Virus record (IMG/VR): IMGVR_UViG_3300012147_000001 | Span: 8,004 to 72,003 of that record | Reading direction: 5' to 3' (one strand) | DNA length: 64,000 bases | Source of the DNA: a virus | Shown here: positions 2,093-38,705 of the stretch, piece by piece | Numbering within the stretch: position 1 is the first letter of the stretch | Layout: every line of letters starts with the position of its first letter | Position numbers and translations under genes: made by a program | The notes under the pieces: model-generated | What the model saw: only the letters and a program-made list of their open reading frames with translations | Database searches by the model: none | What the model was told of the DNA's origin: nothing

Positions 2093-2131
2093 AAAAACAC
2101 CCCCAAGCCGAAGCAAGGGGGTGTATATTTT
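2091..2131. terminator. Bidirectional intrinsic terminator between convergent gene blocks
   Basis: CACCCCC..GC-CGAA-GC..GGGGGTG stem, with an A tract on the left and a T-rich tract on the right. Confidence 0.85.
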
Positions 2132-2134
2132 TAG

Positions 2135-2368
2135 TTAAAGTTTTTGGTTTAGTTTTTCAGCTTCTTGAAGCTTTTCACGTAACCGCCAGACGTATTGCAT
2201 AGCATCACCAAGTTCATCAATAAGATGACTACACCATTCAACAGAATTAAGGTCTTCTCTGTCCATTGTGACACCATATTTATTAAATCCAAGGTGACTG
2301 CGACTATCAAAGTAATTTTTGATTTCGCTAGTTACCCGAACTTCTGGACATGTATTATTTTGGTTCAC
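2135..2368 (-). CDS. Small all-alpha NTP pyrophosphohydrolase-like (MazG-like) protein
   Basis: RSHLGFNKYG...EW..HL.DEL.DA.QY pattern recalled from phage MazG-like mini proteins. Confidence 0.5.
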   Translation of the reverse strand: MNQNNTCPEVRVTSEIKNYFDSRSHLGFNKYGVTMDREDLNSVEWCSHLIDELGDAMQYVWRLREKLQEAEKLNQKL

Positions 2369-2549
2369 TTATAATTTCCCTTAGTTTTAATTCATTGTAA
2401 TAAACAAAAAAACCAGCATTATACATAGCTAATCCATGTGAACCATCTTGACAAGATTCCCAGTGCTCACATCGTTTACTAATAAGGTCACATTTATCTT
2501 GAAGTTCTTGGTTTGACATTGCAATTGCTTCATTTTCTCTATTTGTCAT
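2355..2549 (-). CDS. Hypothetical protein
   Basis: ORF overlapping its neighbours in the minus-strand operon. Confidence 0.65.
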   Translation of the reverse strand: MTNRENEAIAMSNQELQDKCDLISKRCEHWESCQDGSHGLAMYNAGFFVYYNELKLREIISEPK

Positions 2550-2769
2550 GTTCTGTTCCTACTCTTTTTTTATATTCTGTCATAAACTGTGTATCAGCTC
2601 TTTGAGCTAATTCTATAGTTTGACCTCGACCTGTCATTATATTGGAACGACAAGCTACATAACCACCTTCAGGGTGTTTTTCAAAATGAATTGTTTGTCT
2701 GAATGTCCAATCAAATTGTTGATAGGGAGATAATTGATTCCATACGTTTACATGTATTGGATTAATCAT
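2539..2769 (-). CDS. Hypothetical protein
   Basis: AAGGT RBS upstream; operon packing. Confidence 0.7.
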   Translation of the reverse strand: MINPIHVNVWNQLSPYQQFDWTFRQTIHFEKHPEGGYVACRSNIMTGRGQTIELAQRADTQFMTEYKKRVGTEHDK

Positions 2770-2907
2770 AAAAATACCTTTAATAAAAACTCCTTACAGT
2801 TGACACTGTAAAGAGATAACTTCGGAGAAAGTTATTAAAAAATGCTTTTATTTAATACTGTAGGGAATCACCACAAAACCTACAAAATAAAAGCATTTAT
2901 TGATAAC

Positions 2908-3195
2908 TTACTTTATTTTATTCCATTCAGTCCAGTTAACAGCACCAAGACGTTGTGTACGATACAATGATTCAATAATTTCAATTCCATCAGATTCTTC
3001 AATAGTAGCAAGTTTTACCATACATTCAGCATGATACATGTGCATTCCTTGTGTAAACCAATAAAATGCTAAACAATTACAAGCAGCAACATCCATAGGA
3101 ATGTTTTTATGTTTACAACTATCTAAATGTTCTGGTGGATTCTCTTGAAAAGCTATTTTAACAACTTTGTTAAATAATTCTTGAGTAATAGTCAT
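2908..3195 (-). CDS. Hypothetical protein
   Basis: AAGGA RBS upstream. Confidence 0.7.
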   Translation of the reverse strand: MTITQELFNKVVKIAFQENPPEHLDSCKHKNIPMDVAACNCLAFYWFTQGMHMYHAECMVKLATIEESDGIEIIESLYRTQRLGAVNWTEWNKIK

Positions 3196-3220
3196 AATAT
3201 TCCTTAAATTAAAAAGCCCA

Positions 3221-3412
3221 TTACTGAGCTTTTTGTTTTTGTTCTTTAGACCAAGCTAAATATTGTTGAGTTATAATAGCAGCAAATAAAATAACACCAA
3301 CAACAACAGCTATAATGGCAATGATTGGCATAATTAAGGTTAGCGATATAGCTAATACCCCAATTACACAAATCATACTAAAGATACCAAGACCTTTAAA
3401 CCAGTTTAACAT
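3221..3412 (-). CDS. Small membrane protein
   Basis: Long hydrophobic stretch; TAATG stop/start coupling with the upstream gene. Confidence 0.7.
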   Translation of the reverse strand: MLNWFKGLGIFSMICVIGVLAISLTLIMPIIAIIAVVVGVILFAAIITQQYLAWSKEQKQKAQ

Positions 3413-3858
3413 TAATCAAAAATACCATTTTTTTCTGGCACTGGTACTAGTTCTGGTTCTGGTTCAAAAGATAATGCTGCTGCATTGTTTAAATTTACAG
3501 AATCGTCTTCTTCTTCTTCCAAATCAGGTTCAGATTCAATTTGTCCTAAATCGGATTCAGGAGTTTGTACTGGCATACAAACTTCTTCTTCATTAAAATC
3601 TTCTTCTGATTCACTAGTTTCTGGTAAATCATTAGACGATTGAACTGAACCTGACACCGTTGAATTAGCAATAATGCTAGGCTTTTCTTGAATATTAATT
3701 GTAGCTGTTACTTCTGGTACTGGTTTGTCAGCAGACTTACGCCCAACAATAACAGTTACATCAATTTCTCTGCCACCAACACACATGTTTAAATCAGTAG
3801 CAAGATATTGAATTAACGCTTTTTTAATAGCGTTAGTATTTAATGTCATAGTAATCAT
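3412..3858 (-). CDS. Hypothetical protein with acidic C-terminus (position of N4 gp47/48)
   Basis: Likely start MITM after AAGGA; follows the resolvase. Confidence 0.7.
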   Translation of the reverse strand: MITMTLNTNAIKKALIQYLATDLNMCVGGREIDVTVIVGRKSADKPVPEVTATINIQEKPSIIANSTVSGSVQSSNDLPETSESEEDFNEEEVCMPVQTPESDLGQIESEPDLEEEEDDSVNLNNAAALSFEPEPELVPVPEKNGIFD

Positions 3859-3868
3859 GGTTTTTCCT

Positions 3869-4441
3869 TTATATAAATAACATTGATTTTTTAAAAGTTT
3901 CAGATTTAACACCAGCAACAATAGCTGCAAGTGCGTCTGCACAGTGTTCGTTTTTATTTAACATTTTACCTCCACGCTTTAACCAATCAGCTTCAGGTAA
4001 CATTTTAGTAGCCCAATCAAGCATTTCTGCTTTAGTGGCTGTCTTAGTTTTACATGCTGCCATTTTAAGTTCAGTTGGAGATAGAATAAAAATAGGAACT
4101 TCGACCCAAGCAAATAATCCAACACAAATACCATAAGAAGCCATAGCTCTAGCAGTTTGAGAACCAACTGGCATTTCAACAAACACAAAATCAACGTCTT
4201 TTAACATACGCTTAAGAAAGTTTTTATGTAGTTTGGCTCTAGCCAAATCTTCTTCGTTTTTTCTTGATATTTTTGATTTGTTTGGAACAGTTTCTGATAG
4301 TTCCATGCTTAGATATTTGAAAGCTTCTACTCTACAACTATCACTTAAATTAAGTGTCAGTTGCATTTTAATAGCTCCAAAGTTAGATAATGAAGGGTCT
4401 AATCCCAAAACGGTGTAATGCTTAATTTTGGCTTTTTGCAT
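3869..4441 (-). CDS. RuvC-like Holliday junction resolvase (N4 gp46-like)
   Basis: VLGLDPSLSNFG, VFVEMP and EHCADALAA RNase H-fold motifs. Confidence 0.85.
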   Translation of the reverse strand: MQKAKIKHYTVLGLDPSLSNFGAIKMQLTLNLSDSCRVEAFKYLSMELSETVPNKSKISRKNEEDLARAKLHKNFLKRMLKDVDFVFVEMPVGSQTARAMASYGICVGLFAWVEVPIFILSPTELKMAACKTKTATKAEMLDWATKMLPEADWLKRGGKMLNKNEHCADALAAIVAGVKSETFKKSMLFI

Positions 4442-4452
4442 ATTACTCTAAT

Positions 4453-31268: not shown

Positions 31269-31749
31269 AATTTAACCTCAGTTTATAAACATAAAGTGAA
31301 ATTGTTGGAGGTAACATTTCAAACAATTCCAACATAACATTCCAATCACCACCAGCCAATCCACAACACATGAACTCAGGTACTGCAATTTTAGTAGGTC
31401 TCATTCGTCCACTGTTTACAACAGACTTCATCAAAGCTATTTGCATGAATGCTTTAGCTATTGCACCATAATGAACATTTCTATTAGCACCACCAATACT
31501 ACTTTGACCAATGATATTTAACACACCATCATGTTCAATAACATTACCTAACGAACTTGCATTAAAGTTCCATAACTTACAGAACTTATAATACTTTTCG
31601 TATGCTTCAGGAAACTCATGCTTAACTTGCTTGGCAATGCCAGCTCCCATCAATCCTTTTGTATTACAGCAATGCATCAAGAAATCAACATTACCGTTTT
31701 TTAATGCTTTAACAGCATCACCTTCTACATAAGTAATATTTACCATCAC
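31258..31749 (-). CDS. Macro domain (ADP-ribose processing) protein
   Basis: YVEGDA, HCCN..G.MGAGIA, CGLAGGDW. Confidence 0.9.
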   Translation of the reverse strand: MMVNITYVEGDAVKALKNGNVDFLMHCCNTKGLMGAGIAKQVKHEFPEAYEKYYKFCKLWNFNASSLGNVIEHDGVLNIIGQSSIGGANRNVHYGAIAKAFMQIALMKSVVNSGRMRPTKIAVPEFMCCGLAGGDWNVMLELFEMLPPTISLYVYKLRLNYER

Positions 31750-31949
31750 AATATCTCCAATATCTCAATTTCACCATCCATAAAATACAGACCTTCTGGA
31801 GTATTTTTAGTAAACACATCAACACCAAAATCATCTTTAATAGTGGCTTCAACAATATCACCCACTGCTATCTTTTCATTAAAATAACCACCAGAAGTTA
31901 ACAACTTAACTCTGGCTTTTTTACCTGCATTCTTTCTCAATCTAAACAT
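31746..31949 (-). CDS. Hypothetical small beta-rich protein
   Basis: GAGG RBS upstream. Confidence 0.65.
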   Translation of the reverse strand: MFRLRKNAGKKARVKLLTSGGYFNEKIAVGDIVEATIKDDFGVDVFTKNTPEGLYFMDGEIEILEIL

Positions 31950-31987
31950 AAAAAATCCTCAACTCCCTATTACAGGGAGTATTTAAT

Positions 31988-32113
31988 TTAATCTTCTAAT
32001 AACTTAGCTCTATGAGCTAGTATTTCATTGTATTTCTTTTCAAGACGCTCACGCTCAACATCACTAATAGTCGAGCTATAAAGCTGACGTTCAATTATTT
32101 CTAACATATCCAT
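31988..32113 (-). CDS. Small hypothetical protein (41 aa, MDMLEIIERQLY...)
   Basis: Translated by hand; GGAG RBS; first gene after a hairpin promoter. Confidence 0.7.
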   Translation of the reverse strand: MDMLEIIERQLYSSTISDVERERLEKKYNEILAHRAKLLED

Positions 32114-32134
32114 AGCTAACTCCAGTATTAATTA

Positions 32135-32154
32135 TCATTAAGCGGTGAAACCGC
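32135..32154 (-). promoter_or_regulatory. vRNAP-type hairpin promoter
   Basis: Template TC-ATTAA-GCGGT-GAA-ACCGC. Confidence 0.8.
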
Positions 32155-32166
32155 ATTGTGTTAAAT

Positions 32167-32187
32167 AAAAAGAGAGCCGAAGCTCTC
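32167..32187 (-). terminator. Intrinsic terminator with UUCG loop
   Basis: Minus strand GAGAGC-TTCG-GCTCTC-TTTTT. Confidence 0.88.
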
Positions 32188-32191
32188 ATGT

Positions 32192-32428
32192 TTATACTTT
32201 ACAAAACCATCCATCTCTTTCAGGAACACAATAAATATGTATCATGTCTCCATCAGAGCAAATATGAAGGTTCATATTACCTTTGTCATCTTCATTAGAA
32301 GACACATATTCACCAGATTCTTGCTTGATTTTAATCAACCAACGAAAGAATCTATGCTTTGTTAATGAGTGCTTACACATGAAAGCATCACACCAAGTAC
32401 TAACCTCTTCTGTTCTACTATTTCGCAT
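32192..32428 (-). CDS. Hypothetical early protein
   Basis: GGAG RBS upstream. Confidence 0.65.
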   Translation of the reverse strand: MRNSRTEEVSTWCDAFMCKHSLTKHRFFRWLIKIKQESGEYVSSNEDDKGNMNLHICSDGDMIHIYCVPERDGWFCKV

Positions 32429-32567
32429 GTTTAATCTCCCACAACATACTTCTAAACACTAAATAAAAGTATTTAACTTTATTATTCATTATCCAAGATT
32501 CAAAACTACTACCGTCACTACACTGACGATTAATAAATCTAATTATTACTGGCTTTTTATTAGACAT
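32418..32567 (-). CDS. Small hypothetical protein (49 aa, MSNKKPVIIRF...)
   Basis: Translated by hand; GAGAG RBS; overlaps the next gene start. Confidence 0.55.
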   Translation of the reverse strand: MSNKKPVIIRFINRQCSDGSSFESWIMNNKVKYFYLVFRSMLWEIKHAK

Positions 32568-32760
32568 AATGACTCTCATTATTAATTAAAAGACTAAAGG
32601 AATTTGGGTGCAATTGAGTAAGGGAGCACGAAGACCTTTTAGAGTTTTAACTAGACTCTTAACTAGCTTCTTTGAATTTGGTAGAAGCACCAAGCATACG
32701 TCTATACAACAGCTTAAACATATTGTTCGTCAACAACATGAGTACAGTGAATCACCACTG

Positions 32761-32780
32761 CCATTAAGCCCTGAAAGGGC
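32761..32780 (-). promoter_or_regulatory. vRNAP-type hairpin promoter
   Basis: Template CC-ATTAA-GCCCT-GAA-AGGGC. Confidence 0.82.
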
Positions 32781-32895
32781 ATAGTACTGATTAGTACAGT
32801 ATAGTAACAAGTAAGCTCCATAATAAAGATTACTAAGGTTATAGGTCTCTTATAACTCTCTATCTTGAGGTGTTTGTGTTAAATGTGTTGAATTT

Positions 32896-32920
32896 AAAAC
32901 CTACCGTTTAGGGTAGGTTT
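32896..32920 (-). terminator. Intrinsic terminator after the first early gene
   Basis: AAACCTACC/GGTAGGTTT stem. Confidence 0.75.
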
Positions 32921-32924
32921 AGTG

Positions 32925-33137
32925 CTAAGACTTCTTAGCTTGAGGTTTAACAGTGAGGGATTCCATTAGAGCTACAGCTTCTAATCTCTGCTCCTCACGT
33001 AGAATGTCGATGGCGTCTTCTGCCATCTCAACAGTCTTACGAGTTGTACGTGCAGCAACTACAACAACGTTTAAGGTTTCATCAATAGCTACTGATGACT
33101 TGTCTAATACGTTACCTATAAATGAGAATATGTTCAT
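32925..33137 (-). CDS. First early gene (N4 gp1-like)
   Basis: Position after the outermost hairpin promoter; amphipathic helical sequence; GGAG RBS. Confidence 0.6.
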   Translation of the reverse strand: MNIFSFIGNVLDKSSVAIDETLNVVVVAARTTRKTVEMAEDAIDILREEQRLEAVALMESLTVKPQAKKS

Positions 33138-33170
33138 GATTAACTCCGAAGTTAGAACAAGGCAAGATTG

Positions 33171-33190
33171 CCACTAAGGGCTGAAAGCCC
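33171..33190 (-). promoter_or_regulatory. vRNAP-type hairpin promoter (outermost)
   Basis: Template CC-ACTAA-GGGCT-GAA-AGCCC. Confidence 0.82.
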
Positions 33191-33780
33191 TGTGTATGTT
33201 GAAGGGGTGGCAGTACCAGTAGTAGGTAGGTAGTGCATAGGGGGGGTGTGTTTTTGTTTTTGGGTTTAAAACAGTAAGTATTGCATTCATACTCAAAAAT
33301 GAAATTCCATCTAATAACTTAATTTTTCGTTATAAAACAATGACTTATGTTAGTAAGTAATAAATGTTAAAAAAATTATTATATATTAAGCTCTTAATGG
33401 CTCTGTGTGAGGTTTTAATTGTTAAGTAGGGTGAATGTGTGAGTGTAAGGTAGATAATGGCTCTGTGTGTTGGTTTAGTTGGTTTAATGTTATTTAGTAA
33501 AGCTTGCGGTAGCCCTTTCCTGTAACGAAGTGAGTATAGGAGTAAAAACAAGCTGTGGTTGTTTTTCTCCACTGCACGAGTGGAGGGAAAGCAAGTGAGA
33601 AGCGGATTGACTAATGACGCTTTGAACGGTCTTCTAGGAATAGGAGCGGAGCGACTATGTCCGTGGTTTTCCCAGTCTTAACTAGCTAGTCATTTGAGCA
33701 GGTGTCCGAGCCATGCTAATATGGCGACTTGTATACAACTAGACAAAAGAGTATGACTCAGTTTAAATAATGCTATATAG
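33191..33780. other. Non-coding strand-switch region; probable genome terminus / direct terminal repeat
   Basis: Divergent point between early and late arms, G7 tract, G/T skew; N4-like genomes end in terminal repeats between these blocks. Confidence 0.65.
33395..33469 (+). repeat. 15-bp direct repeat TAATGGCTCTGTGTG, two copies 60 bp apart
   Basis: Copies at 33395-33409 and 33455-33469. Confidence 0.85.
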
Positions 33781-33783
33781 TGG

Positions 33784-33812
33784 TTGACAATCATACTTAC
33801 TAAATGTGTAAT
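33784..33812 (+). promoter_or_regulatory. Sigma70-type promoter
   Basis: TTGACA-17 bp-TGTAAT. Confidence 0.7.
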
Positions 33813-33845
33813 TATTATCAATACAGGTATCCATTAATGCTAATT

Positions 33846-34175
33846 ATGTCACTTACAGTGAACCAAAGATTTACTAAGATAGATAACAATGTAATACATG
33901 ATAATAGGTTATCATCTAATGCAAAGACCATGTATTGCATAATGCAAAGCTTCCCTACAGGTAAACATGCGAGTAATGTTTATTTTATGAAAGCAATGAA
34001 ATTAAGCGAGCGTACTGTTACCAGAACACGTATGGAATTGATTAGAGCTGGTTATTTGGAAATAGAGAAAGTTAGTAAAAGAGAATATAAAGCGTTTCTT
34101 GGTACTAGCACAATTAGCGGATTAGAAGTTAAAAATAGGTACTATAAAGATGAACTACATTCTAAGAAAAGTTGA
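33846..34175 (+). CDS. Winged HTH protein resembling phage replication-initiator N-termini
   Basis: FTKIDN....D.RLS..AK..Y...SERTV.....EL...GYL; start placed downstream of the promoter. Confidence 0.75.
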   Translation: MSLTVNQRFTKIDNNVIHDNRLSSNAKTMYCIMQSFPTGKHASNVYFMKAMKLSERTVTRTRMELIRAGYLEIEKVSKREYKAFLGTSTISGLEVKNRYYKDELHSKKS

Positions 34176-34497
34176 TATGGGTAGTGATGCCTTAAACAGA
34201 GTAATGACTGAAGCTAAGATTAGTAACGGTGCTAAAGTACTTTACACTTTTCTTTTTGGATTGCGTTCTGGCGAGATTATTAATAATGAAAAGCTTATTA
34301 AAGATAATGTTGCTGTTAGTAGAGCTATGGTAAATAACTATAAACGAGAGCTTAAAGCACTTGGCTTACTGCACGAAAATAAAGATGGTGAATCTAATAT
34401 ACGATTTATGTATCTTGGCTCGCTAGGTGTTAATGCTTTAGTTTATGCTAAAGATTGGAAACGTGTTGAAATAAACAATGATTTTGAAGATGAATAA
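34150..34497 (+). CDS. Winged HTH protein, paralog of upstream gene
   Basis: ISNGAKVLY...SR..V....REL...GLL. Confidence 0.7.
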   Translation: MNYILRKVDMGSDALNRVMTEAKISNGAKVLYTFLFGLRSGEIINNEKLIKDNVAVSRAMVNNYKRELKALGLLHENKDGESNIRFMYLGSLGVNALVYAKDWKRVEINNDFEDE

Positions 34498-34516
34498 ATT
34501 AAAGGAGTTTTAAATA

Positions 34517-34726
34517 ATGTTTAGATACCAATGCCATAAAATTGTAGATGCCAAACCAATGAGTAGAGGACAGTATAATGTCTATCGTGGTTGGAAAATA
34601 CCTGATAACGAAAACCCAAAAGATGAAGGTTTTCTTGTTGTGTATAACCAAGGTACTGAAGACCATTATGAGTCATGGAGTCCTAAAAAAATATTTGAAG
34701 AAGGTTACACAAGGATTTATAAGTAA
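34517..34726 (+). CDS. Conserved small phage protein (PM.RG.YN.YRGW...Y.SWSPK..FE..Y family)
   Basis: Recognisable motif; AAGGAG RBS. Confidence 0.75.
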   Translation: MFRYQCHKIVDAKPMSRGQYNVYRGWKIPDNENPKDEGFLVVYNQGTEDHYESWSPKKIFEEGYTRIYK

Positions 34727-35130
34727 TGGCTGATATTACAATAAATACCGTTGTATTAGATGACTGTACAATTGGTGCGTTACAGTGCGGTAAGTTTAGG
34801 TGTTTTACTCTTGAATTACCTTGGATTAATAACGCAAATAGTATTAGTTGTATTCCAAGCGGTACGTATGATTACGTAGTACATCAAAGCCCAAGTTTAG
34901 GTAAAGTAATACACATTCTTGATGTTGAAAAACGAAAATGGATTTATATACATAAAGGTAATTTTAAACGACAAATTAAAGGCTGTATTTTAGTTGGTAC
35001 AATGCTTAAAGATATTGATGGTGATGGTTCACCTGATGTTGGTAGTAGTGGTACAGCATTTAATAATTTAATGAATGCTATTAGTTTAAATGGCGGAACA
35101 ATAACAATTAACGGAAAAGGAAGAACATAA
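34726..35130 (+). CDS. DUF5675 L,D-peptidase-like protein; candidate endolysin
   Basis: TIG.L, FTLELPW..N....SCIP.G.Y, IYIH.GN.....GCILVG. Confidence 0.75.
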   Translation: MADITINTVVLDDCTIGALQCGKFRCFTLELPWINNANSISCIPSGTYDYVVHQSPSLGKVIHILDVEKRKWIYIHKGNFKRQIKGCILVGTMLKDIDGDGSPDVGSSGTAFNNLMNAISLNGGTITINGKGRT

Positions 35131-35131
35131 C

Positions 35132-35329
35132 ATGTCAGACCACGTAAAAAGAATGGAAATAGAGTTTAATGAATTAAATACAAAAATTAATGCATTAAGT
35201 AAGTTTATTCATCTAAAGAATGTATTTCAAACTTTAGATTATTTAGAACAAATTAGAATGATAAAGCAACTAGGTTTTATGCAATCCTATGCTGACGTTC
35301 TTAATACAAGATTAGAGGAAGCAGAATAA
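35132..35329 (+). CDS. crAss001_48-like helical hairpin protein
   Basis: RM..E..EL..KI..L..FI....F..L......M..QL..M..Y...L..RL. Confidence 0.7.
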   Translation: MSDHVKRMEIEFNELNTKINALSKFIHLKNVFQTLDYLEQIRMIKQLGFMQSYADVLNTRLEEAE

Positions 35330-35706
35330 TGAAAAAGTTACCTGACGCATGTTTAGTTGAAGAAGATGTTGCAGACACTACAATGAGTAATGATTTTGTA
35401 AAGTCTGGTTCAGTTTTTCCTAAAGTTAATCCTGAAAGTATTGCTGATTTAATGAGAAAAGTTGAATACGAAACTCACAGAGTTGGTACAACTAGTACTA
35501 TTGTTGCAACAGCAGTGCTAAATTATAAAGGCAGTACATTTACTTTGGCTCACGAATCTACTGCATGTGCTGACCCTCGTAATTTTAATCAAGAAAAAGG
35601 TGAATTTTATGCAATTAAAAAAGCATCTTTAGCTGCAAGAGATAAATTATGGGAACTAGAAGGCTATACTTTGTTTAAAGCACTAGCAGATAGCGTAAGT
35701 AAGTAG
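35329..35706 (+). CDS. Phage_gp49_66 family protein (candidate Acb4-like sponge)
   Basis: P.V....I, ACADP.NFN...G...A, A.DKLWELEGY.L. Confidence 0.78.
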   Translation: MKKLPDACLVEEDVADTTMSNDFVKSGSVFPKVNPESIADLMRKVEYETHRVGTTSTIVATAVLNYKGSTFTLAHESTACADPRNFNQEKGEFYAIKKASLAARDKLWELEGYTLFKALADSVSK

Positions 35707-35747
35707 TACTATCGTTTAGTAAGTAAAAACAAATAGGAGAACTTACA

Positions 35748-36146
35748 ATGTTAAAAAGAGATTTATACGCAGTACTACACCTAGTATTAGCTACCATTTT
35801 AACTACAGTGCATAAAGATATAACTAAAAATAGTACCAGCTATAAAAAGTTTTTAGAAACTCTCAATGCAAGGGTATTTGCTGCTGAAAGTGAAAAAGAA
35901 ATTCGTATAGCTATAAACGAAATTAAGTTTTATCAAACGCCTATAGATAATGCTGTATTAGCTAATTTAATGTGGAAAGCGCGTAAATCATTTTATGAAA
36001 AAAACGTTGTAAGTGATGATGATGCTTCTGATGATGAAGGTGAAACAGAAGCTGATAGTGAAGGGGAAATAGATAATTCGGATTCAAATTCCGAAATACC
36101 AAAACCCCTAGCAAAGCCAAAACGAAAACCAAAATCTAAGGATTAA
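35748..36146 (+). CDS. Hypothetical protein with acidic then basic tail
   Basis: AGGAG RBS upstream. Confidence 0.7.
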   Translation: MLKRDLYAVLHLVLATILTTVHKDITKNSTSYKKFLETLNARVFAAESEKEIRIAINEIKFYQTPIDNAVLANLMWKARKSFYEKNVVSDDDASDDEGETEADSEGEIDNSDSNSEIPKPLAKPKRKPKSKD

Positions 36147-36154
36147 TTATTGTG

Positions 36155-36244
36155 ATGAATGGTAAGAAAAAAGAACCAATGAAACGAAAACCTGTTACTA
36201 GTAAAAAACCAAGTAACAAAAAACCTAAAAAAGAAAAGTACTAA
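36155..36244 (+). CDS. Lysine-rich micropeptide (29 aa)
   Basis: MNGKKKEPMKRKPVTSKKPSNKKPKKEKY; AAGGA upstream; followed by a terminator. Confidence 0.55.
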   Translation: MNGKKKEPMKRKPVTSKKPSNKKPKKEKY

Positions 36245-36247
36245 ACT

Positions 36248-36282
36248 AAAGCCAGAGAACTTAAAACATTTTCTGGCTTTTT
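36248..36282 (+). terminator. Intrinsic terminator
   Basis: AAAGCCAGA/TCTGGCTTT stem plus T tract. Confidence 0.75.
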
Positions 36283-36350
36283 AACGAGTAAGCTACGAGT
36301 ACAAAGGGTTTGCGTAGCAATACCCTGCCAGTACGGAGTAGCGTAACGAG

Positions 36351-36379
36351 TTGACAAAATACGATTAAACCTATATAAA
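36351..36379 (+). promoter_or_regulatory. Sigma70-type late promoter
   Basis: TTGACA-17 bp-TATAAA. Confidence 0.75.
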
Positions 36380-36409
36380 ACCTAAATTGAATTAATATAG
36401 AGCACTGCA

Positions 36410-37111
36410 ATGAAATTAGGTATAGAAACAGTTAAAGCAGCGTGTCCACGCACATTAAAAAACAATGTTACACAAGACCTTGTAGACAAAATTAATAACA
36501 TACATACCGACCCTTTAATACGTGAATCAATGCAAGAAAAAGCATTAGGATTTATTAACATATTAACTGAAGGAAGGTTTCGTATTGATGACTATTTGAA
36601 TGCAGTAAAGTATGTTACATATAAAATATCAGATAGTACTAACCAAGAAGCTTACGCAAAAGCATTTCCACATCGCTATCAAAAATTTCTTACAGATGGT
36701 TTAGATGCTAAAGCTATATCAGCCTATGTTGCTATGTACGCGAAGGGTAAGCTGGTTACTATGCTTCTTGAACGTGCAATGATTCCAAGTTACTTGGTTA
36801 ATGCTGATAATTTCCAAAAAGCCATCAACACACAAGTTGAAATAATGCTTACTGCAAAAAGTGAGATGGTACGTATGCAAGCTGCTAACTCAGTAATGAC
36901 GCATACTAAAGCACCTGAAACAGCTAAGATTGACCTTAAAATAACAGACGAAACACAAAGTTCAGTTCTTGATGAATTACGTAAAGCAACACAAGAGCTA
37001 TCACGTAACCAACGTTTAGCAATTGAATCTGGTCAAATGACAGCTAAAGATATTGCACATTCAAGAGTAATAAAAGGTGAAGCTGTAGAGGTTGTGGATG
37101 ATAGAAACTAG
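36410..37111 (+). CDS. N4 gp69-like protein (putative terminase small subunit)
   Basis: GRF.I.DYLNAVKYV.YK, SE.VR..AANS..TH.K.PE; precedes terminase. Confidence 0.8.
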   Translation: MKLGIETVKAACPRTLKNNVTQDLVDKINNIHTDPLIRESMQEKALGFINILTEGRFRIDDYLNAVKYVTYKISDSTNQEAYAKAFPHRYQKFLTDGLDAKAISAYVAMYAKGKLVTMLLERAMIPSYLVNADNFQKAINTQVEIMLTAKSEMVRMQAANSVMTHTKAPETAKIDLKITDETQSSVLDELRKATQELSRNQRLAIESGQMTAKDIAHSRVIKGEAVEVVDDRN

Positions 37112-38705
37112 TGACTACGCTCCAGTAAAGAAAAAAACAGTAGAAGATTATCTTAATGCAATTAATTATTCAGATATTGAAAATTATATTCCATCAGCGT
37201 TTGCATTAGAGTTTGTTAACTTTATTAAGTTAGTAAATGAAGGAAGCACAGAAAACCTTACTCCTGTTGTACACTATCGAATGATAGATAACTTTATTGA
37301 TGATAACGATTTAGACACAATTAATATGTGTCATCGTGGTATAGCAAAGTCTACTCTTAAAGAATACCTCATATTGTACATTGGTGTTTATGGTGGCTTA
37401 CCTGAGTTTGGTAGAATACCTTACGGATTGTACGTATCAGATAGTATAGACAACGGTGTTAAGAAAATGCGTAAAGCATTAGAGTTTAGATGGAATAACT
37501 CTAAATTTTTACAAGATTACATTCCTACTATTAAATTTACTGACATACGTTGGGAATTTATTAACATTGAGAATGTTTCTAGCGTGTTTTCAGCGCATGG
37601 AGCTAAGACTGGTGTTCGTGGTACTCGTGAAAACAACTCGCGTCCTGTGTTAGCTTTACTGGATGATTTAATAGATGATGCTGATGCGCGTTCACCTACT
37701 GTAATATCTCAGGTAGAAGATACTGTATACAAAGCAATTGATTATGCACTTCACCCAACTAAAAGAAAAATTGTATGGTCAGGTACACCATTTAACGCTA
37801 AAGACCCTCTTTACAAAGCTGTAGAATCAGGTGCTTGGAATGTAAATATTTATCCTGTTTGTGAGAAGTTTCCATGTACTAAAGATGAATTTAGAGGTTC
37901 ATGGGAAGACCGTTTCCCTTATGAATTTGTGCTTAAGATGTACACTAAAGCTAAATTATCTGGCAAAGTAGCAGACTTTAATCAAGAAATGATGTTAAGA
38001 ATTATGTCAGCAGAAGATAGATTAATCGAACCACATGAAATGAAATGGTACAACAGAGATAAATTATTATCCCTTAAACCATTATTTAATTTTTACATTA
38101 CTACCGATTTTGCCACTAGCGAAAAAACAGGAGCGGATTTTAGTGTTATATCTGTATGGGCTTTAAATTCTAACGGTGATTGGTATTGGGTTGATGGTAT
38201 TTGTGAAAAACAACGTATGGATAAAAACATTGAAGACTTGTTTAGATTAGTACAAGAGTATAATCCAGAGTCTGTAGGAATAGAGATTAGTGGACAACAA
38301 GGTGGATTTATACCTTGGATTCAAGAGCAAATGATGGTTAAAAACTGTTTCTTTAATTTAGCATCTGATAAAGCTACCAATCAAGCAGGATTACGCCCCA
38401 CAACAAATAAGTTTCAAAGATTTAATGTTGTTTTACCTTGGTTCAAACAAAACAAAATGCACTTTCCTCAAGAAATGAGAGAAGGTAAATGTATGCGTGA
38501 ATGTGAAGACGAATTAATGTTAACAACAGTAGATGGTTTTAAATCTAAAAATGATGATTTTATAGATACAATAAGCCAACTAGCTCAGTTAAAAACTTAT
38601 AGACCTTCAAAAAATAATCAAGGAGTTGGTGCAGCAGATGATAATGGTTTATGGGAAGATGATACAGAATATGAATCAATATCCATAAGTTCTTATATTG
38701 AATAA
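37098..38705 (+). CDS. terL: Terminase large subunit (N4 gp68-like)
   Basis: HRGIAKST, LLDDL, GTP, TTDFATSEK..ADFS, DDFIDTIS. Confidence 0.95.
   Translation: MIETSDYAPVKKKTVEDYLNAINYSDIENYIPSAFALEFVNFIKLVNEGSTENLTPVVHYRMIDNFIDDNDLDTINMCHRGIAKSTLKEYLILYIGVYGGLPEFGRIPYGLYVSDSIDNGVKKMRKALEFRWNNSKFLQDYIPTIKFTDIRWEFINIENVSSVFSAHGAKTGVRGTRENNSRPVLALLDDLIDDADARSPTVISQVEDTVYKAIDYALHPTKRKIVWSGTPFNAKDPLYKAVESGAWNVNIYPVCEKFPCTKDEFRGSWEDRFPYEFVLKMYTKAKLSGKVADFNQEMMLRIMSAEDRLIEPHEMKWYNRDKLLSLKPLFNFYITTDFATSEKTGADFSVISVWALNSNGDWYWVDGICEKQRMDKNIEDLFRLVQEYNPESVGIEISGQQGGFIPWIQEQMMVKNCFFNLASDKATNQAGLRPTTNKFQRFNVVLPWFKQNKMHFPQEMREGKCMRECEDELMLTTVDGFKSKNDDFIDTISQLAQLKTYRPSKNNQGVGAADDNGLWEDDTEYESISISSYIE

Follow-up and report, generated by a model that had tools for sequence, protein, structure and literature searches.

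A candidate counter-defense cassette beside the terminase genes of an N4-like phage, with Sequestin and Acb4 family members and a stand-alone sponge-associated domain

Background

What purpose might be served by a run of very short genes packed together just ahead of the terminase genes of an N4-like phage, and do they belong to the growing arsenal of proteins by which phages mop up the nucleotide signals of bacterial immunity? The question is raised by positions 34517-35706 of a 64,000-nucleotide stretch of viral DNA (hereafter the window), which comprises bases 8004-72003 of the IMG/VR record IMGVR_UViG_3300012147_000001. A first-pass annotation of this locus, made from the DNA letters, had described a candidate island of three small conserved open reading frames (ORFs) encoding signal-sequestering "sponge" proteins. 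Our analysis finds this first reading largely correct: all three ORFs are real and lie on the plus strand at the positions given, although a fourth ORF on the same strand within the interval, ORF4, had been missed. With a probability of roughly 0.78, we interpret the interval as the core of a counter-defense cassette that comprises a Sequestin sponge (ORF5), an Acb4 sponge (ORF6), a sponge-associated protein (ORF3) and a passenger (ORF4).

The argument proceeds from the two ORFs with recognizable sponge affinities to ORF3, an uncharacterized sponge-associated module, and thence to the organization and genomic setting of the cassette. Gene structure, family assignment, conserved residues and domain fusions are observed here; what the cassette proteins bind, how they oligomerize, when they are expressed and whether they counter defense are inferences.

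Results and discussion

ORF5, a member of the Sequestin family

ORF5 matches the Pfam family PF21825 with 67.7 bits against a cut-off of 24.8, and the alignment spans profile positions 1-60 of 61. This family is named Sequestin in the Tal et al. preprint, where it emerged as the most frequent fusion partner of Tad2 (60 instances) and of Acb4 (91 instances). According to the same preprint, inhibition of type I Thoeris was seen with 10 of the 13 members tested, a purified member sequesters 3' cyclic ADP-ribose (3'cADPR), and the ligand is contacted by a set of R, E, Q and R residues, which are R7, E11, Q45 and R59 in SequestinB. The published R/E/Q/R set corresponds to R7, E11, Q46 and R60 of ORF5, and in an alignment that joins ORF5 to 33 Sequestin domains taken from fusions, conservation at these columns extends to 33, 34, 33 and 33 of the 34 sequences, respectively. 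A search of the PDB with the ORF5 sequence alone returned no match. On the strength of the family assignment and the retained residues, ORF5 is predicted to be a 3'cADPR sponge directed against type I Thoeris. Two copies would pair in antiparallel fashion, and the two pockets at their interface would trap the 3'cADPR made by the Thoeris protein ThsB; capture of the signal would leave the effector ThsA without activation.

ORF6, a member of the Acb4 family

Residues 34-118 of ORF6 match PF13876 with 43.2 bits against a cut-off of 27 (43.3 bits in the whole-genome scan). It is related to the Acb4 of phage N4, encoded by the gene labelled gp48 in NC_008720 (PF13876, E 8.8e-35), to which it is 41% identical over 74 residues (E 3e-13). 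That proteins of this family are related to Acb4 had been stated in the first-pass annotation, and the literature bears this out: the Chang et al. preprint places the founding member, SPO1 Acb4 (gp1.3), in PF13876 and describes Acb4 as a tetrameric sponge for 3'3'-cyclic GMP-AMP (3'3'-cGAMP). Acb4 proteins are characterized by an α-β-β-β-α core and by assembly as homotetramers. Binding of 3'3'-cGAMP was seen with all eight homologues that these authors purified, and additional binding of 3'3'-cyclic AMP-AMP (3'3'-cAA) was confined to those whose phages infect Gram-negative hosts. N4 Acb4 itself has a reported dissociation constant of 111 nM for cyclic di-AMP (c-di-AMP), and it triggers the PanDA guard system. 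In the N4 record (locus L007, 5633-6486) the gp48 label belongs to the PF13876 protein and the gp49 label to a protein combining an ORF3-type domain with Tad2; the Pfam name "N4 Gp49" thus mismatches the numbering of that record.

SPO1 Acb4 was located in the SPO1 record and is the protein of PDB 9E4W, with residues that agree with the numbering of the paper. Searches of the PDB with ORF6 alone and with its family profile did not reach 9E4W, and the link between the two was made via N4 Acb4. In a MAFFT alignment of 23 family sequences, the ten residues of SPO1 Acb4 that contact cGAMP map onto ORF6 as follows: K36 to S56, F48 to F71, E49 to T72, V56 to C80, Y57 to A81, F62 to F86, N63 to N87, I66 to K90, T70 to Y94 and K81 to E109. 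Seven of the ten positions are occupied by the same residue in ORF6 and N4 Acb4. ORF6 additionally has a 47-residue N-terminal extension, conserved among its close relatives alone. We infer that ORF6 is a predicted cyclic-dinucleotide sponge of the N4 type, which would form a tetramer and sequester the cyclic dinucleotides of the cyclic-oligonucleotide-based anti-phage signaling system (CBASS), most likely 3'3'-cGAMP and c-di-AMP, such that CBASS effectors would stay off.

By their sequences, then, ORF5 and ORF6 each add a new member to a sponge family already known, with scores above the Pfam cut-off. As both families have been validated experimentally, two of the three ORFs of the first-pass annotation belong to validated sponge families. 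Its proposal of stand-alone signaling inhibitors is thereby supported in part, the ligand residues of ORF5 being retained; as a sponge in its own right, ORF3 is a candidate at most.

The ORF3 domain and its association with sponges

ORF3 carries a SWSPK..FEEGY motif and matches no Pfam family. It matches five PHROGs of unknown function, the best with an E-value of 1.6e-16, and a full HMMER scan recovered 1293 cluster representatives at E<=1e-3, of which 278 reach E<=1e-10, which together mark it as a real conserved gene. A tblastn search found the domain in 156 phage records from very different hosts, with at least 80% of ORF3 covered in 154 of them and many of the copies being genes of about 70 amino acids (aa). 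A word-index homology search gave just one close relative, and the ESM Atlas returned unnamed viral clusters only. Among characterized proteins, ORF3 is 41% identical over 66 aa to residues 6-69 of CB1 gp68 (E 2e-15) and 43% identical to residues 14-80 of N4 gp49 (E 4e-17), the rest of which is a Tad2 domain.

Domain architectures were counted among the best 150 of the 1293 HMMER hits after three giant proteins were dropped (P0085 and P0093, with fibronectin and immunoglobulin repeats, and P0023, of 7046 aa, which was dropped unscanned), leaving 147 homologues, or 148 rows with ORF3. Pfam families detected in the 148 include PF21825 (32), PF11195, which is Tad2 (29), and PF13876 (13), along with one each of the Acb2/Tad1 hairpin, T7 gp5.9, Pesticin, OmpA and Sec3_C-term. 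Hidden Markov models built here detect one or more of Sequestin, Tad2 and Acb4 in the same chain as the ORF3 domain in 72 of the 147 homologues, which confirms and strengthens for ORF3 the earlier remark that the two domains other than the gp49_66 type often neighbor or fuse with known sponges. Some proteins combine three domains: P0043 has the ORF3 domain, Sequestin and Acb4 in the same order as in the window, P0125 and P0066 have Acb4, the ORF3 domain and Sequestin, and P0107 has the ORF3 domain, Sequestin and Tad2.

These architectures allow the reading that ORF3 is itself a small homodimeric protein acting as a new sponge or binding another immune signal as its ligand, in which case the cassette would neutralize three signaling systems. 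Candidate ligands would be histidine-ADP-ribose (His-ADPR), N7-cyclic ADP-ribose (N7-cADPR), cyclic tri- and oligonucleotides, or cyclic UMP and cyclic CMP (cUMP/cCMP). Like the known sponge modules ORF3 is small and predicted to be homo-oligomeric; its domain occurs alone or at the N-terminal, internal or C-terminal position of multi-sponge proteins and is found in anti-defense hotspots; and the same guilt-by-fusion logic led to Sequestin. The domain is also more conserved than its fusion partners, with nearly invariant aromatic and charged residues. In ten IMG/VR loci picked via the Acb4 gene and not via ORF3, the median pairwise identity is 53% for the ORF3 domain, 34% for the fused Tad2 and 42% for the neighboring Acb4, and the ORF3 domain exceeds Tad2 in 37 of 42 pairs; a separate comparison on an ORF3-selected set was set aside as biased by that selection. 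Such conservation could simply come from a tightly packed swapped dimer, and we regard the new-sponge proposal as possible, though rather less probable than its negation.

Structural modeling supports a strand-swapped homodimer for ORF3. The homodimer model has an interaction prediction score from aligned errors (ipSAE) of 0.66, against 0.00 for the best control, a mark that 20 of 30 proteins with structures solved as one-chain pairs attained, as did 1 of 23 with single-chain structures. From run to run, at least 98% of the contacts are shared, with a partner pLDDT (predicted local distance difference test) score of at least 85. The contacts center on residues 1-13, which pair with the other copy as in the published β1 swap: the RyR Tad, CB1 gp68, has an N-terminal domain that forms a β1-swapped five-stranded dimer in the crystal (Migulavirinae preprint). 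Since no like complex is detectable by sequence in the PDB, recall of a solved structure by the model seems unlikely.

The dimer brings a further reading to the fore, namely that the ORF3 domain is a passive handle for dimerization or stabilization, its stand-alone copy having no anti-defense activity of its own and perhaps being what gene fission left behind, or a modulator able to pair with copies that are fused. The RyR Tad N-terminal domain contributes to dimerization as a swapped dimer and is reported to be inactive alone; in 96 of the 148 rows the ORF3 domain is N-terminal and followed by 40 aa or more (it is essentially alone in 36), and the predicted interface is the swapped N-terminal strand; and the closest syntenic loci have the domain joined to Tad2, of which the window genome has no copy. 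Speaking against a mere handle are the abundance and conservation of stand-alone copies, as judged by the 154 of 156 well-covered records, the intact frame and own ribosome-binding site of ORF3, and the fact that the partners Tad2, Acb4 and Sequestin are described as oligomerizing by themselves. This reading, too, strikes us as plausible in outline and doubtful as the answer.

ORF3 might instead bind a host or defense protein, for instance by blocking a sensor, an effector or one of the guard systems by which sponges are detected. According to a review, several of the Thoeris inhibitors Tad3-8 act by protein binding, and guard systems that sense sponges do exist, which would favor co-inheritance of a protein-binding domain with sponges. 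An identity of 45-65% across phages of Clostridium, Vibrio, Pseudomonas and Rhizobium would be unusual for a protein-binding inhibitor; N4, which has the domain on gp49, is reported to be still restricted by PanDA; and neither PADLOC nor any other source gave a hint of a partner. We consider this role improbable, and distinctly more so than either a sponge or a handle.

Named inhibitors were also considered as identities for ORF3 and rejected by their published descriptions: TadIV-1 is helical and confined to Straboviridae, Lockin is hexameric and absent from sequenced phages, and Tad3-8 are binders of ThsB or ThsA. The central motif W..P...GY.V.Y of ORF3 is similar to the motif found at the B-C strands in fibronectin type III domains, which accounts for the multi-repeat fibronectin and immunoglobulin giants drawn into the HMMER hit lists; the resemblance is probably at the level of the motif. 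Searches of the PDB with ORF3 alone and with two family profiles gave just weak fibronectin type III motif matches, at E 0.01 or worse. We found no literature linking the ORF3 domain with several sponge families in the accessible texts; as the domain is nameless and supplements lay outside the search, this negative is a weak one. One preprint removed sponge homologues with "PF21825 or PDB 6E3C" domains, and the latter may or may not be the ORF3 domain.

Taken together, ORF3 is best seen as a stand-alone, putatively homodimeric copy of a β-rich module of 65 residues that elsewhere shares one polypeptide with Sequestin, Tad2, Acb4 or an RyR sponge domain. It would form part of the same modular anti-signaling toolkit, whether as a new ligand binder or as an accessory.

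ORF4 and the case for counter-defense

ORF4 matches the DUF5675 family PF18925 with 96.2 bits (cut-off 26.7) and has a His...Gly-Cys motif, read by eye. A preprint on lysin discovery places DUF5675 among the C82 (YkuD)-like families, and in other phages the gene adjoins transmembrane-helix and tail genes. From its sequence, ORF4 is probably a candidate cell-wall enzyme of the C82/YkuD-like kind and not a sponge; it would be an unrelated passenger in the cassette.

In an altogether different reading, the cluster has nothing to do with counter-defense and consists of morphogenesis or decoration and lysis genes ahead of the terminase, like dec in phage L. In phage L the dec gene immediately precedes that for the small terminase, ORF4 resembles a cell-wall enzyme, some homologues of ORF3 are annotated as "Dec protein" or "capsid decoration protein", and PDB 6E3C (phage L Dec) is listed in a preprint as an extra domain on sponge homologues. 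An affinity of ORF3 with Dec and its oligonucleotide/oligosaccharide-binding (OB) fold was examined and rejected: hhalign gave a probability of 0.41 over 9 columns for the ORF3 family against the Dec family, and of 0.71 with an E-value of 0.079 against a single Dec sequence; a PDB search with the ORF3 family profile at E<=10 failed to return 6E3C. ORF5 and ORF6 fall in sponge families reported as experimentally validated, and we consider the morphogenesis explanation very improbable.

Certain observations nevertheless weigh against the cassette being a counter-defense device of the kind proposed: 1) In the Tal et al. preprint, 3 of the 13 tested Sequestins were inactive. 2) ORF6 is identical to SPO1 Acb4 at just 3 of the 10 contact positions (F71, F86 and N87). 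3) The residues with which SPO1 Acb4 reads guanine, K36 and E49, are both replaced; with most SPO1 contacts altered, these included, the ligand range of ORF6 is extrapolated from N4 Acb4. 4) The one published test of the domain by itself, in the Migulavirinae preprint, reports no anti-type I Thoeris activity for fragment 1-86 of gp68. 5) ORF4, which has no link to anti-defense, interrupts the island. 6) The cassette adjoins late genes, whereas sponges are normally made early.

Organization of the cassette

The interval is the middle of a cassette of seven packed plus-strand ORFs at 33804-36146, in the order HTH, HTH, ORF3, ORF4, ORF5, ORF6, ORF7, where HTH denotes a helix-turn-helix protein (Table 1).

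Table 1. The cassette ORFs and nearby expression signals, in window coordinates
Feature	Coordinates	Strand	Matches and remarks
Small HTH protein, 123 aa	33804..34175	+	PF13730 HTH_36, E 2.7e-9; possible regulator, first cassette gene
Second small HTH-like protein, 115 aa	34150..34497	+	Weak match to phrog_186, E 4.4e-4
ORF3, 69 aa, stand-alone "SWSPK" domain	34517..34726	+	phrog_872; homologue of RyR Tad N-terminal domain
ORF4, 134 aa, DUF5675	34726..35130	+	PF18925, E 1.4e-27; phrog_1501
ORF5, 65 aa, Sequestin family	35132..35329	+	PF21825 crAss001_48, E 8.5e-19
ORF6, 125 aa, Acb4 family	35329..35706	+	PF13876 Phage_gp49_66, E 5.9e-11
ORF7, 132 aa, last sizeable cassette gene	35748..36146	+	No family; AGGAG ribosome-binding site upstream
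Terminator-like hairpin followed by T-run	36248..36282	+	12-bp stem, -15 kcal/mol, z -3.23
Sigma-70-like promoter, TTGACA, 17 nucleotides, TATAAA	36351..36379	+	Found by eye; precedes small-terminase-like gene at 36410

ORF3 and ORF4, and likewise ORF5 and ORF6, overlap by 1 nucleotide, and ORF4 and ORF5 are separated by 1 nucleotide; AGGAG-type ribosome-binding sites precede ORF3 and ORF7. The hairpin downstream, which only 1 of 200 shuffles matched in folding, is probably the 3' end of the cassette transcript. These packed junctions, the hairpin and the promoter-like site beyond it make the cassette look like its own transcription unit. The earlier claim of a single operon is accordingly upheld as plausible, and goes no further than that. 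A sigma-70 consensus scan of 31500-37200 listed 13 sites, fewer than the shuffle mean of 24.4, and identified no promoter of the cassette's own; the promoter-like site upstream of the small-terminase-like gene is missing from that list because its second hexamer does not have the final T.

The PHROG matches of the first HTH protein are the winged-helix N-termini of replication initiators; the second has no Pfam family above cut-off. Just 5' of the first HTH gene lies an imperfect palindrome (33708-33759) with overlapping 30-nucleotide arms that are 73% complementary, and it is possible that this is the operator for an Aca-like autoregulator of the cassette. Further upstream, the gene-poor region between divergent blocks (31960-33200) contains 8 short, G+C-rich, terminator-like hairpins against 2.7 in shuffles, and two of its hairpins have 5-6 bp stems and GAA loops. 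The promoters of the N4 virion RNA polymerase are small hairpins.

At the other end, ORF7 combines a hydrophobic N-terminus, a long strongly acidic stretch and a basic tail, and has no match in any of the four libraries Pfam, PHROGs, PADLOC and NCBIfam; it might act as a DNA mimic of sorts or be anchored in a membrane. Between it and the terminator-like hairpin lies a very basic 29-aa ORF (36155-36244, plus strand). Scans with PADLOC and NCBIfam gave no significant matches.

Genomic setting and related loci

The source record of 72,003 bases has direct terminal repeats, is rated 100% complete and is a complete 72-kb N4-like phage genome. Its terminase DNA is about 70% identical to that of N4-like phages of Alteromonas and Vibrio, and the gene order in the window is that of N4, with primase, Sak4-like, single-stranded-DNA-binding (SSB)-like and RuvC-like genes on the minus strand and terminase and structural genes on the plus strand. 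The stretch turns up in metagenome runs from lake water. The cassette lies between the region of the genome end and the terminase genes, upstream of the small-terminase-like gene. A whole-genome scan found one copy each of the ORF3-type, Sequestin and Acb4 domains, and no Tad2 domain anywhere.

The published anti-signaling hotspot of N4-like phages lies between the genes for primase and virion RNA polymerase (bioRxiv 10.64898/2026.06.04.730250). The corresponding position in the window (about 2100-4450, minus strand) is occupied by an N4 gp46-like RuvC-type gene and small ORFs without family. Across 3869-4441 and 2135-3942, both on the minus strand, the hotspot has this RuvC-type gene, 40% identical to N4 gp46 (E 8e-40, phrog_159) and of a type named Bes1 in the Migulavirinae preprint, as well as an acidic 176-aa ORF and five small ORFs without Pfam family, and the small ORF at 2135-2368 (minus strand) matches phrog_17558, whose function is unknown.

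We sampled 80 IMG/VR loci with an ORF6-like Acb4 and counted features within 4 kb of it. Sequestin was present in 20 loci, mostly in the same open frame as Acb4, Tad2 in 13, the ORF3 domain in 12 (ten in one frame with Tad2 and one in frame with Acb4), an RyR-type C-terminal domain in 3 and DUF5675 in 1; at least one further sponge-type domain occurs in 34 of the 80. The closest parallel in arrangement is given by L028/L049 (contig of 74,757 bases), where an HTH homologue again stands ahead of the sponges in the corresponding locus and is followed by Acb4 fused to Sequestin, the ORF3 domain fused to Tad2, two more genes, and the small and large terminase genes. This synteny identifies the pre-terminase position as a recurrent variable locus in a phage subgroup, distinct from the primase-virion RNA polymerase hotspot. 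The two further genes (5483-6751 of L049), which separate the sponge genes from that for the small terminase, encode proteins of 422 and 86 aa of unknown nature and make the locus variable in content. In L033, L045 and L047, RyR-type C-terminal sponge domains occur in frame with, or beside, ORF6-like Acb4 genes, which suggests Acb4-RyR fusions that go unmentioned in the accessible parts of the literature examined.

Functional and evolutionary implications

ORF5 and ORF6 extend known sponge families into an N4-like phage of lake water, and their position points to a second anti-signaling locus kept by N4-like phages beside the terminase, in addition to the published hotspot. The more useful lead is ORF3, whose domain is present in the model phage N4 and is joined, in about half of its relatives, to sponges of four different classes. 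We tentatively raise the idea, for which the odds are at present unfavorable, that the SWSPK domain defines an unrecognized, widespread, dimeric anti-signaling family with a ligand or target of its own, and that ORF3 is a free-standing third inhibitor. If this were true, a further sponge family would be hidden as the N-terminal domain of N4 gp49, of the RyR Tad and of hundreds of fusions with Sequestin, Tad2 or Acb4. The free-standing ORF3 offers the simplest construct with which to ask if the domain is a signal binder, a guard-evasion factor or a dimerization handle.

Comparison with known systems

With the characterized Sequestins (T4 Y16O and the domain of Ab09 gp59), ORF5 shares the PF21825 domain and all four ligand residues, and its length of 65 aa falls within the family's range of about 60-80 aa. 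In Ab09 and in the closest syntenic loci Sequestin is fused after Acb4, whereas ORF5 stands alone and is encoded before Acb4. SPO1 Acb4 (gp1.3, PDB 9E4W) shares F48, F62 and N63 with ORF6, but K36, E49, V56, Y57, I66, T70 and K81 are replaced and the N-terminal extension of 47 residues is found in ORF6. The Acb4 gene of N4 adjoins that for the virion RNA polymerase, whereas the ORF6 gene lies upstream of the terminase.

The RyR Tad of Pectobacterium phage CB1 has an N-terminal β domain (gp68 residues 1-86) that is homologous to ORF3, and the predicted ORF3 dimer is formed via the N-terminal strand like the published domain-swapped dimer of gp68. The RyR Tad continues into a C-terminal, gcADPR-binding PF02026 domain of the RyR Repeat12-like kind (gp68 residues 125-171, E 3.6e-10), whereas ORF3 ends at residue 69 without one and is therefore not a RyR Tad. 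In N4 gp49 (NC_008720) the ORF3-type domain is fused to Tad2 (PF11195) and an Acb4 gene adjoins, as in the window; with no Tad2 in the window genome, ORF3 is stand-alone, unlike N4 gp49. Finally, the cassette and the primase-virion RNA polymerase hotspot described in the bioRxiv preprint (10.64898/2026.06.04.730250) belong to the same phage group and share the same type of inventory, Acb4 and Sequestin, but the cassette sits outside that hotspot, near the small-terminase-like gene instead.

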